Source: Candidatus Spongiihabitans sp. (GTDB lineage Bacteria; Pseudomonadota; Gammaproteobacteria; Arenicellales; Poriferihabitantaceae). From it: a stretch of 64,000 nucleotides of DNA. The notes beneath the pieces were generated by a model. The model saw only the letters and a program-made list of their open reading frames with translations, did no database searches and was not told the origin of the DNA. Below, one piece after another: positions 4,009-12,834 of the stretch; position 1 is the stretch's first letter; each line of letters opens with the position of its first letter. Both the position numbers and the translations under genes were made by a program. Location of the stretch: positions 2,391,228-2,455,227 of the forward strand of contig NZ_OZ250154.1 in NCBI RefSeq assembly GCF_965237845.1, in the 5' to 3' direction.

Positions 4009-5326
4009 TCCGGGTCAGGCGATATTGTGCTGCTCGCCGATGCGCGGTCAATCCTTCGCAATTGGCAAGAACCGCAGCGATTTTCGCCATCTCGTCCGCG
4101 CCTTCCATTGACGCTTGTATTATGCTGCTTCTCTTTTGAAAGTCATACACGCCCAATGGTGAACTAAACCTCGCCGTCCCTGCTGTGGGTAATACATGGC
4201 TCGGCCCCGCACAATAGTCCCCCAACGCCTCCGCGCTATATTTTCCAACGAAAATAGCGCCTGCATGGCGCACTTGTCCTAGCAGTGCTTGTGCATCTTT
4301 CACCATCAGTTGTAAATGTTCCGGGGCAATGCGATTAGCAATCTCCGCCGCCTGGTTTAACGCATCAACCAAAATAAGCGCGCCTTGCGTGTTCAGGGAT
4401 TTTTCAATGATTTTCCTGCGTTCCATTTCGGGCAACAGTTGCCTGACCGATGCTTGTATTTTCCCGGCCATCGATTGCGATGTTGTGATTACCATAGATT
4501 GCGCCAGCTCATCGTGTTCGGCCTGAGCAAACAAATCCATCGCCACCCAATCCGGGTCAGCGGTTTCATCACAAATAATCAGCACTTCCGAAGGGCCGGC
4601 AATCATATCAATGCCCACATCGCCGAATACCATTTTCTTGGCGGTGGCGACATAGATATTTCCGGGGCCGACGATTTTATCGACTCTGGGAATGGTTTCC
4701 GTTCCATAAGCCAAGGCAGCAACCGCTTGCGCTCCGCCTATGGTGAATATTCGATCAACCCCGGCAATCGATGCTGCGGCAATAACCGCAGAGTTAACCT
4801 CTGCGTTTGGAGTTGGAACAGTCATGATGATTTCCCCAACGCCTGCGACTTTAGCGGGAATGGCGGTCATCAACACCGAAGAAGGATAAGCCGCCTTTCC
4901 GCCAGGAACATAGACGCCGACTTTATCCACGGCGGTGATATTTTGCCCGAGCCGAGTGCCGTTTGATTCGGTATAGCACCATGACTGCTGCACTTCTTTT
5001 TGGTGAAATTCCCGAATACGCATCGCCGCTGCCTGCAGTGCTTCGGTTAATTCATCATCAACGTTTGCGATGTGCGCGTCTATTGCGGCAACGGGCAATT
5101 CCAGTTGAGATGCCTGTGCCACATCTAAATTATCTAATTTACGGGTATAGTCGATAACCGCATTGTCGCCCTGGGCGCGCACTGTTGCGATAATCGTCTT
5201 GACGCTGCTTTCCACGGAGTCATCTCCACCAGAATCAACCTCAAGGTTGCGGGCCAATAATTTTTCCAGTTCGGCTTCGAAATTTTTGTCAGCGAATTGG
5301 AGTTCTAATAACATGGCGGAAATCAA
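3989..5326 (-). CDS. hisD: Histidinol dehydrogenase
   Basis: 445 aa with GGKAAYPSSVLM, IAGPSEVLII, AQAEHD and GDYCAGPSHVLPT motifs. Confidence 0.95.
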   Translation of the reverse strand: MISAMLLELQFADKNFEAELEKLLARNLEVDSGGDDSVESSVKTIIATVRAQGDNAVIDYTRKLDNLDVAQASQLELPVAAIDAHIANVDDELTEALQAAAMRIREFHQKEVQQSWCYTESNGTRLGQNITAVDKVGVYVPGGKAAYPSSVLMTAIPAKVAGVGEIIMTVPTPNAEVNSAVIAAASIAGVDRIFTIGGAQAVAALAYGTETIPRVDKIVGPGNIYVATAKKMVFGDVGIDMIAGPSEVLIICDETADPDWVAMDLFAQAEHDELAQSMVITTSQSMAGKIQASVRQLLPEMERRKIIEKSLNTQGALILVDALNQAAEIANRIAPEHLQLMVKDAQALLGQVRHAGAIFVGKYSAEALGDYCAGPSHVLPTAGTARFSSPLGVYDFQKRSSIIQASMEGADEMAKIAAVLANCEGLTAHRRAAQYRLTRNAKPDA

Positions 5327-5355
5327 TCAGGCCGTATTTTGATTTATGTTTCGAT

Positions 5356-5553
5356 TCATGTAATACGTCTGCACTCGACGAATGTTTGCACCGATTTGCG
5401 ACACACCGGGGACGTATCCCTACCCCTCGGTCTAGAGGGGATGGACCGTAAGTATTCGCAACTCATTTCAAAACACTCGCCGTCAGTGAACGACACCATC
5501 AGAGTTCGGGTCTTGCGATTGAGATTGATTTCGGTGGGAGTGTGTTGGCTCAT
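5356..5553 (-). pseudogene. DUF971-family gene remnant; only about 36 N-terminal residues are intact
   Basis: MSQHTPTEINLNRKTRTLMVSFTDGECFEMSCEYLR resembles the DUF971 N-terminus. The expected VHSPSAEV.GHG continuation is visible only in another frame, broken by stops (VHPL*TEG*GYVPG). Confidence 0.5.
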
Positions 5554-5561
5554 GTTTTCTT

Positions 5562-5980
5562 TTATGTCTTTTTCACCAGTTTTCCAAGTTGATTCATTTT
5601 TCTGTTAAGAAGTCGCCGCTCTTTTAGCTGACACTCCCATATTCGCATTACTTTCCATCCTCTGTTTTTAACTGTGCTGGTTACCAATCTGTCACGTTTC
5701 TTGTTGGCATCTATCTTTCGAATCCAAACTCTCTGTTGCTTTCTGGAACCTCTCCATGTTTCGGACAACCATGCCAGAAACACCCGTCAATAAAAACCGC
5801 AATTTTGCTATTTGGAAATGCAATGTCTGGATTTCCAAAAAACGGATACCTACGCCGCCATCCCGTTAGGTGGTTCTGTTTCAACACTTCAATAAGTTTG
5901 CCTTCGGTTGATTTGTTTCCGGAGGACCAGACACGACTCATAAGCCATGAGCGTTTCTGTTGTGAAAAGACATCACCCAT
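5562..5980 (-). pseudogene. vsr: Very-short-patch repair endonuclease Vsr, split by a 1-nt deletion in an A/T run
   Basis: ORF 5711-5980 carries GNPDIAFPNSKIAVFIDGCFWHGCPKHGEVPESNREF. ORF 5562-5783 continues WIRKIDANKKRDRLVTSTVKNRGWKVMRIWECQL. The frames rejoin if ccaaactc (5724-5731) were ccaaaactc. Confidence 0.8.
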
Positions 5981-7637
5981 TCTTTTTTACATTATCCAAT
6001 CTATACAACAAAAATGAAACCAAACTTAGGATATTGAGACAATCATTTTCAATAAAAAGTTTGTTTAATATTTCTCTAGTTTCTTGAGATTCAGGATTCC
6101 TAAATGCCTGCATCAAACCAACTGAAAGAGATCTTTGACCATGTTGTATATTAATTTCTGTTTCACTGGAAAGTTTAGAGACTTGAAGTTTCGGATAGTT
6201 AGTGATTTCTATTTTTCCTTTTTTCTTTTCATATTTGAAATTAAAAGCCTGATTCATCAAATCTACACCTGACAATTGAAGATTGAGTTCCCTTTTCACT
6301 TTATTGTCGTAAACAACAGTTCCTTCTCTTGCCGCTTCTAAATATTTGCCACTTTTGTAGTCCTCATATAGCCTTTCCTTAATAAGTGGATGCAAGTTTC
6401 TCCAATGATAATAAGGATAAGGGGGTATAAGTTCTTTAAGTTCGGTGAATAATTCAACAGACTTGTCAGATTCTACTTCGGGAAGATCTTCAATAAGTTT
6501 TTTAATAAAAATCTCAAAGTTATTTTTCATATTCTCTGGCATGGATTTTTTCCAATCTTCTATGCCAACAGCACCAAGATTCTGGCTGACCTTTGCAAAT
6601 TTTTCATCTTTACGTTTTTTACGCCAATCCACTTGCACAAACTGAACGCACTGCCCAAGATACTTATGAAGTTCACTCATTTGTAAATGTCCCCAGTTAA
6701 GATTCTGTCTATTGGTGGAAATCACATCCTCAAGAAAATCCTCTATAAAGTCCACTTTTAACCATCCTGTCATATACGAAAAGAAGTGGCTGGATGTGCT
6801 ATCAGCAAATTGATAGGGGGTTTGTACAAGCTTGCCTCGGGCAAACAAAGAAATACCTCTCGAATCAAATCTTGGTGCAATGGGTTTTTCGGGTGTAATA
6901 ATTTTGCCCTGAATTTTGGCAACATGTTCATAATCTGATTCTATATCAGTAAAATCGTCTGGAAAATCCCAAGAAAATTCCTCGCCAAATGCGGAAAAGC
7001 GCATATCATTCGATAACGTTACCGCTTCCCCATCGTTACGACGTATGGTGACGGCAAAATCTTCTTCAAAAATAAAAAATCTCGCTATGCTACTAGCAAG
7101 CAATTCTTCCGAAAAATCAGATGCTCGATTTATATTTGTCAGTGTTATTTTAGTTCCTATGTCATCTCCTTCAACAATTTCATCGACCACTTCCGGGGTC
7201 ATTAGATATTTTCCTTCCGAGGAATTCATTAAATCATTCCAATCCATCGTAAAAATATTTCGCTTCTTTTGCTTAACAGTGTTTATGGTAATTGTCTGAA
7301 CAATCCCAAAAAATGAGAGCTTTCCCAAACCCTTTTTACCAATAACCTCCCGACCTCTATGAGTTATACCCTCTCCATCTTTTCTGCGATTGCGGCCAAT
7401 AATAAGAAATTTGTTATCAATATCATTAAATGACATACCCATACCGTTATCTTTTACAATAATTCTTTTCTCTCCAACATCATGTAACTCCACTTCCACT
7501 CTTGTTGCGTCCGCATCGTATGAATTAGATATTAACTCACTCAAAACCGGCGGCAGGGTTGAATACATCCGAATCCCAAGATGTTCTATAACCTTCGGGT
7601 CAAATGTCATCGTTAATTGTTTGTCGTTTTGAGACAT
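5973..7637 (-). CDS. GHKL (Bergerat-fold, MORC-like) ATPase with a C-terminal Hypoth_Ymh/TIGR02391-like domain
   Basis: N-box ELISNSYDADA, G1 box VKDNGMGM and G2 box GKKGLGKLSFFG. The C-terminus reads YKSGKYLEAAREGTVVYDNKV...GVDLMNQAF...LSVGLMQAFRNPESQ...NILSLVSFLLYRLD. It starts 9 nt after dcm and overlaps vsr by 8 nt. Confidence 0.7.
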   Translation of the reverse strand: MSQNDKQLTMTFDPKVIEHLGIRMYSTLPPVLSELISNSYDADATRVEVELHDVGEKRIIVKDNGMGMSFNDIDNKFLIIGRNRRKDGEGITHRGREVIGKKGLGKLSFFGIVQTITINTVKQKKRNIFTMDWNDLMNSSEGKYLMTPEVVDEIVEGDDIGTKITLTNINRASDFSEELLASSIARFFIFEEDFAVTIRRNDGEAVTLSNDMRFSAFGEEFSWDFPDDFTDIESDYEHVAKIQGKIITPEKPIAPRFDSRGISLFARGKLVQTPYQFADSTSSHFFSYMTGWLKVDFIEDFLEDVISTNRQNLNWGHLQMSELHKYLGQCVQFVQVDWRKKRKDEKFAKVSQNLGAVGIEDWKKSMPENMKNNFEIFIKKLIEDLPEVESDKSVELFTELKELIPPYPYYHWRNLHPLIKERLYEDYKSGKYLEAAREGTVVYDNKVKRELNLQLSGVDLMNQAFNFKYEKKKGKIEITNYPKLQVSKLSSETEINIQHGQRSLSVGLMQAFRNPESQETREILNKLFIENDCLNILSLVSFLLYRLDNVKKNG

Positions 7638-7646
7638 AGAATTGTT

Positions 7647-8690
7647 TCATACTGCACAAATGGACTGTGCTATTCTGTAAGCGAGTTGCGGTGGTACGGC
7701 ATTGCCTATTAGTTTGGAGGCGGCTGTTGAGCTTTCACACACAAAAATATAGTCTTTTTCGAATGTCTGTAATGTCGCGCCCTCTCTTAGAGACAATCCT
7801 CTATCCTCTTCCGGGTGGGTAAAACGGCCGTTGGAAATCCCGTTGAATCTTGTTGTAATGGTCGAAGAAGGTTTATTCCATCTCAACCTTCCGTAAACAT
7901 CTCTAAAAGAATCATCTTTGCCTTTGTAAGCCTTCAGTTGAAGTTCGGGGTCGTCTTTCCATGCCTTTCTCGTTCCGCCATTTTTGGGGGTCAGTTTAAC
8001 GCGTCTCAGATTTTTTTCGGATAAAGATGCAACTGTATCCATGAAATCAGTATCATCTATATGCCCGGCTCGAAGGGCGGGAAAACCATTATGGGTTCCG
8101 ATAAATTCTGCCAGAATCGATTCTTTTTCGGGTTTGGGAAAATTGATCGATTCGTTCATCCTGGAAGCAATCAAAACAAATCTCTTCCTGCTCTGAGGTA
8201 CCCCATAATCCTTGGCGTTCAAAATATTTTCGGTAATCACATGTCCTTTTTCTTTAAGTTTTTCGCAAAAATTATCAAGTCCGCTTTCCGCTTCTTTTCT
8301 TTTCATTCCGGGAACATTTTCTATAATAACATAGCCCGGATTATAGTAATAGACAAAGCGCCAAAAATCTTGAAGTAGCCCCTTGCTTCCTTCAGATGAT
8401 CTTCTATTGGTATTCAAAACGCTCCAATACTGGCAGGGACTACATCCTATAAAAACTAAAGAATCATCATTGCGTTTAACCCCGCACTTTTTTTCCAGAA
8501 ACGTACGGGGAAGTTTCTTTATATCTTTCAGAAAAAATCTAGTCTCAGGATGATTTTTCTCATATGTCTCCTTGCAATCTTCATCTATATCTATACCCGC
8601 AACAACTTTCACCCCGGCCATCTTCATGCCCTGCGTCATTCCGCCCGCACCGCAGAAAAAATCGACGGCTTTCAACAACTTGGCTGTCAT
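7647..8690 (-). CDS. dcm: DNA (cytosine-5)-methyltransferase
   Basis: Motif I FCGAGGMTQG, motif IV GCSPCQYWS, motif VI ENVPGM, motif VIII QSRKRFVLIA and motif X GNAVPPQLA. Confidence 0.93.
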   Translation of the reverse strand: MTAKLLKAVDFFCGAGGMTQGMKMAGVKVVAGIDIDEDCKETYEKNHPETRFFLKDIKKLPRTFLEKKCGVKRNDDSLVFIGCSPCQYWSVLNTNRRSSEGSKGLLQDFWRFVYYYNPGYVIIENVPGMKRKEAESGLDNFCEKLKEKGHVITENILNAKDYGVPQSRKRFVLIASRMNESINFPKPEKESILAEFIGTHNGFPALRAGHIDDTDFMDTVASLSEKNLRRVKLTPKNGGTRKAWKDDPELQLKAYKGKDDSFRDVYGRLRWNKPSSTITTRFNGISNGRFTHPEEDRGLSLREGATLQTFEKDYIFVCESSTAASKLIGNAVPPQLAYRIAQSICAV

Positions 8691-11035
8691 TTGTCACCGC
8701 CCAGTCTTTCAATTAGTGTTACCACATGAGCCGCAATTGCGGATGAGGCCAAACGTAAAACCTTGTCTTCGTCATAGTCTTCTTGTCTGCCGGAGTTTTC
8801 TTTTTCAGCATCATGGATCAGTTTTTTATACATCGCCAAAGTGAGAATACCAACACCGAATCTAAAACGGTGTCTAATAATCTCCCTTTTATCTTCGTCC
8901 CTTTCTCTTAAAACCAGATACAAAAGATATTTGTTGCCTTGGTTCACATATACTGTCAACTCCTCTCCCACAGAAACATGGCCGCCCGATTCTTCTGTAT
9001 AATTGTAGTTATCCCAATCTTCCATTTTCACCCATACAATGTCAGGAAAATTAAGGGAACGCTCCTTTTTCTTCCTTGTATTGGTTTTATCTCCGCCAGA
9101 ATTTGTGGTTGTTTTCTCTTCATTGGAAATTTTTATTGTTACATCGAAAAGTAAAGGAGTGGTTCTCTCTGGATTAGAATCATTGAAGCCAAACTGAACA
9201 GAAATTTCATCCTTCACTTTGGCATTTTCTGGAGGGCTTACCTTTATGCGAAATTTTCCATTACGCAGAGAACCTGAATTTGGTAGTACATCAGGCATTG
9301 GATGCAAAAATTTGCCCTGGTCGGCTTCTCTTATTAAATAGTCGTTTTGAGCATCCGTCTTACATACAATCCATCTGTAAGAATTGATGGGAATACTTTT
9401 TACGTCACCTTCCTCCAAGTTTGTTGGCTTTAAATATGTTGGAAACATTTTTCCTTCATATTTGTCCTCGCCTCCGGACGTTTGGACCGGCTCAACGACA
9501 ATATCCCCAGCATCAAAAAGCTCTTGAAGGTCGAGATTGTTTTTGACAAGATCGGAAAGGAATTCTTTACTGGATTCTTTCTCTATCTGTTCGCTCTGAC
9601 GACGTTTTTTTATTTCTCGCGCATATTTTCTGAGTTCTCTGTCCTCTCTCAGGGAATCTATAACGATTTCCTTTAATTCTCTCGTCAATTCTATTTGCGC
9701 CATTCTTTCCCTGTCCGGCTTAAACACGGCGGAGCGTGCCGTGTTGTCCATGGCATTACAGTCAATTTGAACAAGTAGATGGTTTCTTAGATCATCAAGT
9801 TGTGCCTTGCGCAATAAACTTGCTCTTTCCTTGGCTTGGGATTGACCGTTGATCGTGTAAAACATTCTGTAAGAGTAGTTGCGCAAATACTCCTTCATTT
9901 TGTCCAAGACAAAATAGGATATGCGAATAGTCCCCAAACTGCTATTTTCGGAATTCTCAGTCACGCCTTCAAAGTCGACTCGGCTTGTTTCGCCTTCTTC
10001 ATCATCAGATTTAAGCACTGTCTTCATACCGGAAAAAGTTCTTGGGGCTATACCTTCCGCCCTAAGGCCAACTTTTGTGGGCTTGGCATCAAAATCATAA
10101 AAACGAAGAGGCAAAGCACAGTCAATCAAACTTGTCGTGAGTGCGTCATACAATCCCAAATCAACATTACGGGAACCGGGGCCTATGTCATATTCATATA
10201 GTTTTACAACGCTGCCGCCATCTTTAACAACACCAATGTCCGCCCTGTCGTTGAAAGCTCTAATCTCATCAGCCTCAAAACAGGCAATTTCCCCATTGGG
10301 ACAGAAATACTCAACTACGGGCAGATCCTCCCCCTTGTGCGGACTCCGTACTCTTATTAGAGTCCATCCCCATAGGCCATCCGAATCGTCCAGGTTTCTC
10401 TTCGAGAGAATGAGTTTGTACATTCCACTCCTGATTTCCGCTCGGGTACAAAAAGTTATGGACCCGGTACTACCCATATTAAAACGCCCCTGAACAAATG
10501 GAATGCCGTCCTTGTTCTTCTCTCCGAGAGACAGAAAAGTCTTTTCAAAGTCTCCGTGATTTTGACCTTCACCAAAATCAACTATCGTGTAATTTGGGCA
10601 AGTGTCCCTTTTGGCTTTTCTTTGAATGCCTATCAAAACACTCTTTTCGGCCAATTTTGTCCTTTGCCCTTGACTTAACAGTGTTAATTTTCCTTCTTGA
10701 ACTTCGGGGAAAAAGAGCTTAACCGCTTCGCTCATGCTTTGGGGAACCGCTTCGCTCTCCAAATCCAGCCTCTTCTCCTTCGCCTTCCGCATGAGGATTG
10801 CGTCAATAGAATTAATAATCAGTTCCGCCAACGCACCGACAGGCTCGCTTGTTTGGACACCTACCCTGTCCCAATTCTTTTCAGCACCGCCGTAGGGTTT
10901 CCAATTCTTGTCATCGCTAAACTCGGATCGGCTTTTCAGAATTTCATTGACTTGTTCAGTGGAAAGCGCACGCAGGAAACCCTCCGCCGTTAACTTGGAA
11001 ATTTGGCTATTGGAAAACTTACCTGAATTAGTCAT
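8687..11035 (-). CDS. Large (782 aa) GHKL-like ATPase with about 500 aa of unrecognised C-terminal sequence
   Basis: N-box ALAELIINSIDA, G1 box IVDFGEGQ and G2 box GRFNMGSTGSITF. The rest has no motif I can name. Its stop overlaps the dcm start (ATGA, 8687-8690). Confidence 0.6.
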   Translation of the reverse strand: MTNSGKFSNSQISKLTAEGFLRALSTEQVNEILKSRSEFSDDKNWKPYGGAEKNWDRVGVQTSEPVGALAELIINSIDAILMRKAKEKRLDLESEAVPQSMSEAVKLFFPEVQEGKLTLLSQGQRTKLAEKSVLIGIQRKAKRDTCPNYTIVDFGEGQNHGDFEKTFLSLGEKNKDGIPFVQGRFNMGSTGSITFCTRAEIRSGMYKLILSKRNLDDSDGLWGWTLIRVRSPHKGEDLPVVEYFCPNGEIACFEADEIRAFNDRADIGVVKDGGSVVKLYEYDIGPGSRNVDLGLYDALTTSLIDCALPLRFYDFDAKPTKVGLRAEGIAPRTFSGMKTVLKSDDEEGETSRVDFEGVTENSENSSLGTIRISYFVLDKMKEYLRNYSYRMFYTINGQSQAKERASLLRKAQLDDLRNHLLVQIDCNAMDNTARSAVFKPDRERMAQIELTRELKEIVIDSLREDRELRKYAREIKKRRQSEQIEKESSKEFLSDLVKNNLDLQELFDAGDIVVEPVQTSGGEDKYEGKMFPTYLKPTNLEEGDVKSIPINSYRWIVCKTDAQNDYLIREADQGKFLHPMPDVLPNSGSLRNGKFRIKVSPPENAKVKDEISVQFGFNDSNPERTTPLLFDVTIKISNEEKTTTNSGGDKTNTRKKKERSLNFPDIVWVKMEDWDNYNYTEESGGHVSVGEELTVYVNQGNKYLLYLVLRERDEDKREIIRHRFRFGVGILTLAMYKKLIHDAEKENSGRQEDYDEDKVLRLASSAIAAHVVTLIERLGGDK

Positions 11036-11094: not shown

Positions 11095-11515
<421 letters not shown>

Positions 11516-11526
11516 AATAAAATCAA

Positions 11527-12834
<1,308 letters not shown>

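Follow-up and report, generated by a model that had tools for sequence, protein, structure and literature searches.

A cassette of four genes, A782, Dcm, B554 and Vsr, occupies positions 5562-11035 on the minus strand of a 64,000-nt stretch of the Candidatus Spongiihabitans sp. genome (contig NZ_OZ250154.1). This whole stretch is referred to as the window, and its positions are used as coordinates throughout. With moderate confidence, we read the cassette as a horizontally acquired island of restriction-modification (R-M) type, in which two methylase-linked GHKL ATPase modules have been joined and share a single C5-cytosine methyltransferase. Our confidence is only moderate chiefly because the methylases appear to have been swapped between modules, which is awkward for strict cognate pairing of a methylase (M) with a restriction enzyme (R). 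The four genes, with the evidence for each, are:

8687..11035, minus strand: A782, a 782-amino-acid (aa) protein predicted to be a GHKL ATPase with transducer domain (open reading frame (ORF), AlphaFold (AF2) model, Foldseek)
7647..8690, minus strand: Dcm, a C5-cytosine DNA methyltransferase of 347 aa (PF00145, TIGR00675, PADLOC)
5973..7637, minus strand: B554, a 554-aa paraMORC-type GHKL ATPase with a C-terminal Ymh/HEPN region (hidden Markov model (HMM) matches)
5562..5980, minus strand: vsr, encoding a T:G mismatch endonuclease, split (Vsr HMM on both halves)

The four ORFs are closely packed, and their positions in the ORF list agree with an earlier note on this DNA, which had described a 4-nt overlap (A782/Dcm), a 9-nt gap (Dcm/B554) and an 8-nt overlap (B554/vsr). 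All of the families that this note had expected in the cassette, HATPase_c_3, Hypoth_Ymh/TIGR02391, DNA_methylase and Vsr, were recovered with Pfam and TIGRFAM HMMs. Dcm was matched by DNA_methylase (PF00145, 5.5e-57), TIGR00675 (3.5e-44) and the PADLOC model MTase_II (3.7e-91), and looks intact at the sequence level, with the motifs FCGAGG, PCQ, ENV, QSRKR and GNAVPP all readable in its translation. Vsr is encoded in two pieces in overlapping frames, an N-terminal part at 5711-5980 (Vsr HMM, 2e-14) and a C-terminal part at 5562-5783 (8e-8). The Bergerat motifs that had been read by eye in both ATPases proved to be invariant among the homologues of each: E71/N75/D78, D153xGxG157 and N186-MGSTG-191 in 46 homologues of A782, and E34/N38/D41, D63/G65/G67 and G100/G103/G105 in B554, including all 13 B554 copies. 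Scans for promoters and terminators gave matches no more numerous than in shuffled sequence. A782 and B554 are each 100% identical to a protein of a Candidatus Spongiihabitans MAG (metagenome-assembled genome), a symbiont of sponges.

Gene neighbourhoods were counted in 43 genome loci carrying a relative of A782 (labelled L001 and so on), in all of which the ATPase motifs of A782 are invariant. A C5 methylase lies directly downstream of A782 in 28 of these loci, and in nearly all of those with at least 40% identity; Vsr is present in 18, and B554 in 12. The last figure is the four-gene combination, which is therefore conserved elsewhere, a point on which the earlier note had made its interpretation depend, and our searches suggest that further four-gene copies lie on metagenome contigs. 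With the exception of a small upstream ORF, no other gene recurs among the 43 loci at a comparable frequency. As gene neighbours the two ATPases are not an obligate unit, each being found alone with a methylase elsewhere. A metagenome-assembled genome (MAG) labelled Nitrospirales (L001, 85% identical) has A782, Dcm and Vsr without B554, and in betaproteobacterial loci vsr follows directly after A782. Self-contained B554 + Dcm units, with or without Vsr, were found in an Anaerolineales MAG, a Clostridium sp., a Moraniibacteriota MAG, a Burkholderia plasmid and Neisseria gonorrhoeae, and L044 and L045 are examples lacking Vsr.

Distant members of the A782 family, as sampled here, adjoin methylases of other classes, either N6_N4_Mtase (as at L056) or N6_Mtase/Eco57I-type enzymes (as at L055), and at L053 Dcm and Vsr are divergently transcribed near the A782 relative. 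One family in the company of several classes of methylase is what usually marks a restriction component, and because of this association we infer that the A782 family plays the restriction part in an R-M system. At L050 (263-7352), an N6_N4 methylase and a winged helix-turn-helix (wHTH)/response-regulator-like gene are followed by a 704-aa paraMORC with HATPase_c_3 and HATPase_c domains (HEF_HK-like), with a 4-nt overlap between it and the A782-like gene. This independent arrangement is the second to combine two GHKL ATPases with a methylase.

Because either ATPase can be found paired with a methylase and without the other ATPase, the simplest reading of the island is a fusion of an A782-Dcm module with a Dcm-B554 module. 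The two would have been set side by side and one methylase then lost, which one differing by lineage, so that a single Dcm is now shared. In sequence clustering, the Dcm proteins of the window and of L001-L009 group with methylases from modules that have B554 only (45-51% identity), whereas most A782 loci carry a Dcm of a different clade, 32-36% identical to that of the window. At L013, L016, L018 and L025, B554 follows an A782-type Dcm. Furthermore, at L013 a complete Dcm of A782 type and an intact B554 have between them what is left of the C-terminal part of a B554-type Dcm (122 aa, 11548-11916), and this remnant is a footprint of two R-M-type modules that fused, with one of the methylases lost afterwards.

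B554 consists of a HATPase_c_3 domain (1e-23, residues 29-162) and a C-terminal region matched above cut-off by both Hypoth_Ymh (PF09509, 1.7e-16, residues 413-547) and TIGR02391 (3e-19). Ymh has been described as a HEPN domain that is fused to paraMORC ATPases in R-M neighbourhoods (Anantharaman et al., PMC3710099). On this basis the tail of B554 is, by sequence, a putative nuclease domain of the HEPN superfamily, and the statement in the earlier note that the island holds no recognisable restriction nuclease is not supported. Ahead of the tail, residues 9-383 align to positions 2-400 of the 659 in the NCBIfam model NF050001, 'BbrUII/HgiDII family restriction enzyme' (1.2e-65), and B554 also matches two PADLOC REase_II models (2e-27). 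A match of this kind had been named as something that would undermine the case for a new system, and it does so in part only: the NF050001 score of 222 bits lies below the 550-bit cut-off and the C-terminal ~260 model positions are unmatched. For these two reasons B554, though related to the BbrUII/HgiDII family, is not a member of it. The match of B554 to PADLOC MzaB is at the level of the GHKL domain only (6e-7), and MutL models match it over residues 31-75 only, far below their cut-offs. The B554 family comprises more than 2,679 homologues.

For A782, the only family match was to HATPase_c_3 and was sub-threshold (7e-4). Searches of Pfam, NCBIfam and PADLOC gave nothing beyond it, HMMs gave no MutL match, and 30 distant members of the family had no match in Pfam or PADLOC-DB v2, whose defence models include Mza, Shedu and Tiamat. 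More than 516 close full-length homologues were found, all annotated 'hypothetical', and a profile search returned 2,379 clusters at 50% identity. A tblastn search against plasmids recovered remote relatives only (24-31% identical, 'hypothetical protein'). In the AF2 model (pLDDT 81.6), GHKL and transducer regions extend to residue ~445; a helical linker then leads to a beta-sandwich of Ig-like type, behind which come a small alpha/beta unit and, at the C-terminus, a helical hairpin. Foldseek searches with the whole model aligned it over ~370-540 columns (E ~1e-9) to the GyrB 43K fragment and to the ATPase regions of Hsp90/TRAP1 and TopoVI-B, and the model thus predicts a GHKL domain followed by an S5-fold transducer. 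No relationship between the A782 and B554 families was found by profile-profile comparison. Between clades with different Dcm types, conservation of A782 is 39% in the C-terminal beta region vs 59% in the GHKL domain, which is weak evidence, and divergence domain by domain showed no break resembling a target recognition domain (TRD). A beta-beta-alpha (His-Me-like) site considered at residues ~685-710 was rejected, as the window His (GGHV) is unconserved and most relatives read GAYV. The view that neither ATPase has a biochemically characterised mechanism stands.

Among known systems, the NmeAI type of Neisseria shares both gene content and gene order with the Dcm-B554-Vsr part of the cassette: a C5 methylase, then a GHKL + Hypoth_Ymh protein, then Vsr. 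NmeAI comprises three genes, for M, R and patch repair (PMC3787668); M.NmeAI is reported to recognise CCGG (PMC7973814), and R.NmeAIP combines GHKL with Hypoth_Ymh (Orlowski & Bujnicki, PMC2441816). The M-R-V locus of N. gonorrhoeae (L048), which from its published description we infer to be the named NmeAI/Ngo homologue, has 55-58% protein identity to the window in Dcm, 38-40% in the GHKL/Ymh protein and 42% in Vsr. The window differs in having a fourth gene, A782, upstream of Dcm and translationally coupled to it, in the change of the HEPN His to Gln, and in its split vsr, which leaves no intact Vsr. The Dcm-B554-Vsr trio fits an R-M type that is catalogued, as REBASE-listed putative systems, but biochemically unproven. 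In R.HgiDII, a GHKL domain at the N-terminus is combined with a C-terminal domain that has no assignment (PMC2441816); B554 resembles the BbrUII/HgiDII enzymes (NF050001) in the GHKL domain and the region following it, and differs in that Ymh/HEPN replaces the C-terminal part of the model.

GHKL ATPases in operons with a cytosine methylase and Vsr are listed in REBASE and have been described computationally since 2008 (Iyer, Abhiman & Aravind 2008, PMC2292703). The window resembles these paraMORC/MORC operons in the GHKL motifs of both ATPases and in the presence of the methylase and Vsr. A782 lacks the ExxxH of paraMORC2, the RecB-like nuclease of paraMORC3, the TIR domain of paraMORC4 and the HxH of paraMORC5, and in a comparison made by published description only, no motif specific to paraMORC1-5 (PMC2292703) is conserved in it. 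HEF_HK/response-regulator-like systems form an operon type of Dcm, a paraMORC-derived GHKL protein and Vsr (Bellieny-Rabelo et al. 2021). They are linked to A782 through L050, where the A782-like gene directly follows such a HATPase_c_3 + HATPase_c protein, whereas the window has no HEF_HK or response-regulator-like gene and its second ATPase is of the Ymh/HEPN type. VcSduA, a Shedu-type paraMORC3 protein, is a validated anti-phage system in which the GHKL ATPase is required together with the C-terminal nuclease (PMC12137116), and shows that paraMORC-type proteins can be defence effectors. Unlike the window ATPases, neither of which matches the Shedu models in PADLOC, it carries a PD-(D/E)xK DUF4263 nuclease and needs no methylase. 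For methylase-linked paraMORC-type proteins we found no published mechanism, and tested activity was found only for the methylase-independent VcSduA.

Set against this background, the Dcm-B554-Vsr unit is already catalogued, and what is new is the A782 family, the absence of a recognisable nuclease in A782, and the recurrent fusion with a second paraMORC module. A782 stands for a very large family of partner proteins, linked to several methylase classes, for which the annotation libraries now in use have no model. Modules that fuse repeatedly and can swap methylases are hard to reconcile with a strict M-R partnership. For annotation, a 'hypothetical protein' or 'TIGR02391 family protein' beside dcm becomes readable as part of an R-M-type system.

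The favoured reading implies a mechanism with two arms. In the Dcm-B554-Vsr module, the methylase would mark host DNA at a short site, and B554 would be an ATP-driven effector acting through its HEPN domain once that mark is lacking or the system is perturbed. Vsr, by a role established for its family, would repair T:G mismatches arising from deamination of 5-methylcytosine (5mC) and so offset the mutagenic cost of the mark. GyrB, MutL, Hsp90 and MORC proteins are ATP-dependent, dimerising GHKL clamps. Both GHKL proteins of the cassette may likewise dimerise on ATP and clamp DNA, and would license an effector where the mark is absent. In the second module, no effector domain can be discerned in A782, and methylation by the neighbouring enzyme may antagonise it, which would make A782 the R-like component, equipped either with an unrecognised catalytic site or with a mode of action that requires no cleavage. 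If A782 does restrict DNA, it would do so through a previously unseen nuclease fold or in a way that needs no nuclease.

A more specific proposal, which we put forward tentatively and consider rather unlikely, is that the A782 family as a whole, made up of MORC-like GHKL ATPases, is a methylation-antagonised restriction effector without a known nuclease fold. Such an effector would either cut with a catalytic site of a new kind, located in the Ig-like/C-terminal region, or act without cutting on incoming unmethylated DNA, by ATP-dependent clamping, looping or compaction, and it could team with a second paraMORC, of GHKL-HEPN or HEF_HK type, as a two-ATPase machine. Were this true, the MORC-mediated silencing of eukaryotes would have a counterpart in prokaryotes, with the opposite meaning attached to methylation.

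Several results weigh against the reading of the island as two joined R-M-type modules. The full-length model of A782 retrieved only GHKL/transducer proteins in Foldseek and no nuclease fold. Residues 445-782, modelled separately (pLDDT 68.5), gave Ig-like matches only (E >= 1.5e-3), and thus structure prediction and fold search on the C-terminal part of the large protein, a check proposed in the earlier note, likewise found no nuclease fold. A profile of the C-terminal half searched against PDB sequences returned noise only (E 0.55). HEPN domains are mostly RNases, and because of this B554 may not cleave DNA at all. R.NmeAIP is itself only a putative restriction endonuclease (PMC2441816), and we found no published activity for NmeAIP. 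CCGG, the site reported for M.NmeAI, is not depleted in the 64-kb window (ratio 1.05), and no clear candidate site came out of the same 64 kb, the site-avoidance analysis being uninformative as a whole. At L010, L027 and L028, A782 has intact motifs and no adjacent methylase, which is unusual for a classical restriction enzyme, and the overlapping genes of L050 hint at two ATPases that cooperate rather than act independently. Finally, the intact B554 at L013, with its own methylase reduced to a remnant, counts against strict cognate M-R pairing.

It is possible, though we would not call it probable, that the cassette in this particular genome is a decaying relic without present function. The HEPN motif of the window B554 reads R513-NPES-Q518 (codon CAA at 6086-6084) instead of R-x4-H, and the catalytic R-x4-6-H motif of HEPN domains is accordingly absent. 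His518 is present in 27 of 28 aligned B554 homologues, the window (Gln) being the sole exception, and in 10 of 13 four-gene loci. In a DNA alignment with four relatives, vsr lacks one T from a T4 run at ~5726-5728 and is frameshifted. Because of these two changes, the cassette in this genome is, as far as its sequence can tell, probably no longer fully active. Complete loss of function would also fit its setting among hemB, DUF971 and PP-loop fragments with no mobility gene, as well as the decay of other copies (L009, L016, L030 and L033). However, none of the ORFs of A782, Dcm and B554 is shortened, and every ATPase and methylase motif is retained in them. The frameshift of vsr falls within a homopolymer, and a single third-position change turns His into Gln, so that both defects could be either true decay or a long-read/assembly error.

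We regard as doubtful the alternative in which B554 is an abortive-infection RNase, held in check by its methylase/restriction partner and freed by phage interference, with A782 providing the primary restriction at the DNA level. A role of this kind was explicitly proposed for HEPN-paraMORC proteins by analogy with PrrC and RloC (Anantharaman et al., PMC3710099). Retention of R-x4-H in 27 of the 28 tails is in line with it, and it would explain why B554 tolerates a methylase swap at L013, L016, L018 and L025. It is less easily squared with the B554 + Dcm pairs, which exist without any other restriction component to guard, and with the homology of the first 400 residues of B554 to enzymes that NCBIfam names as BbrUII/HgiDII restriction enzymes.

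An extension of the two-ATPase module named in the earlier note, in which A782 and B554 form an obligate machine such as a MutL-alpha-like heterodimer under Dcm control, seems unlikely to us. B554 would in that case supply the HEPN nuclease, and A782 the DNA recognition or clamp. GHKL ATPases are known to work as dimers; an A782-...-Dcm-B554 order occurs in 12 of the 43 loci, where it takes two forms that differ in the clade of their Dcm; the closest homologues of B554 seemingly lie, in many cases, on contigs shared with A782 homologues; and at L050 the A782-like gene overlaps a different paraMORC. Nevertheless, 31 of the 43 A782 loci, including L001 with its 85% identity, have no B554, and the sampled B554 loci outside the sponge clade are all without A782. 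The two families also lack profile similarity, and L013 presents two once-complete modules side by side. A pure repair accessory, in which the GHKL ATPases would be MutL-like activators of Vsr in very-short-patch repair that travel with Dcm and limit the mutagenic cost of 5mC with no part in defence, is very improbable: the functional interaction of E. coli MutL with Vsr (as cited in the reference list of PMC2292703), the translational coupling of vsr to B554 and its position directly after A782 in betaproteobacteria speak for it, but the association is with the methylase (28 loci) rather than with Vsr (18), the B554 + Dcm modules of L044 and L045 have no Vsr, distant A782 members stand beside N6/N4 methylases where T:G repair is irrelevant, a HEPN nuclease domain would be needless in a repair activator, and MutL models match only ~45 N-terminal residues of B554.

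That the cassette was acquired horizontally, as the earlier note had held, is supported by its composition, by cross-phylum DNA similarity, by flanking fragments that came with it and by a direct repeat that brackets it. The block is more AT-rich than its neighbours, as had been remarked, with a GC content of 0.32-0.46 vs ~0.50 for hisD and murA. Loci in sponge-associated MAGs that bear the labels Nitrospirales, Arenicellales, Thermodesulfobacteriota and Poriferihabitaceae match the cassette at 72-80% DNA identity over most or all of its length, which documents that a single defence cassette has recently moved among sponge symbionts belonging to different phyla. The features around it are:

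5320..5405, no strand assigned: left direct-repeat copy, a diverged remnant of the murA 3' end (VSQIGANIRRVQTYYMNRNINQNTA*), abutting the hisD start codon
5356..5553, minus strand: DUF971 / GBBH-like_N gene fragment (GBBH-like_N 6e-4, below cut-off)
11095..11409, minus strand: 3' fragment of hemB, porphobilinogen synthase (ALAD 2e-20, profile positions 238-289 of 317)
11384..11515, minus strand: truncated N-terminus with the look of a PP-loop (SGGxxS) / PAPS-reductase protein (MNKPHIVKFSGGRSSG...; motif reading only)
11520..11616, no strand assigned: right direct-repeat copy, the functional murA 3' end

Similarity to related cassettes continues past the four genes on both sides. Window DNA at 11124-11366 is 78-83% identical to the 3' end of an intact hemB that lies directly upstream of A782 in L002 and L004, an Arenicellales and a Poriferihabitaceae MAG, and in these two loci the DNA downstream of vsr is 76-80% identical to window positions ~5419-5616. 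Because of this continuity, the hemB and DUF971 fragments are identified as donor flanking genes that were transferred together with the cassette.

A 42-nt direct repeat flanks the low-GC block as a whole (5320-5361 and 11520-11561; 88% identical, spacing 6200 nt), with similarity extending to ~85-95 nt. The left copy matches the C-terminus of murA in tblastn (61% identity, E 3e-7), and the arrangement resembles what att-type integration at the murA 3' end would leave. Since the duplicated murA 3' end brackets the block, murA evidently abutted hisD before the insertion. A conserved murA-hisG-hisD order, on which the earlier note had leaned, was not borne out: tblastn found no hisG in the window, in a weak test that used an E. 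coli HisG query. No integrase is left and the cassette has no mobility gene; a tRNA-targeted island can be set aside because the window contains no tRNA gene and no Rfam family. The PP-loop-like ORF, which begins a few bases after the murA stop and has no Pfam or NCBIfam match, is on its sequence probably left over from whatever occupied the insertion site earlier.

Three further observations concern the neighbours of A782 relatives in other genomes. In two sponge-symbiont MAGs (L027 and L028), a lone A782 at about 8001-10349 lies directly upstream of rpoZ-spoT-ridA-recG. The small ORF mentioned above, of ~76-100 aa (core ...RVNRVIKEIRLIGNLSNRSSYEYSDEDVRKI...) and without a Pfam match, lies directly upstream of A782 relatives at L012, L014, L017, L019-L022, L035-L040, L053 and L055, in clades with a linked Dcm as well as in those without one; the window and its closest relatives lack this ORF, which may encode a regulator or a subunit. 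At L054 (3441-4502), a distant A782 relative is accompanied by a 353-aa protein that matches the C-terminal domain of SeqA below cut-off (1.4e-4). SeqA binds hemimethylated DNA, and this neighbour may be another reader of methylation.

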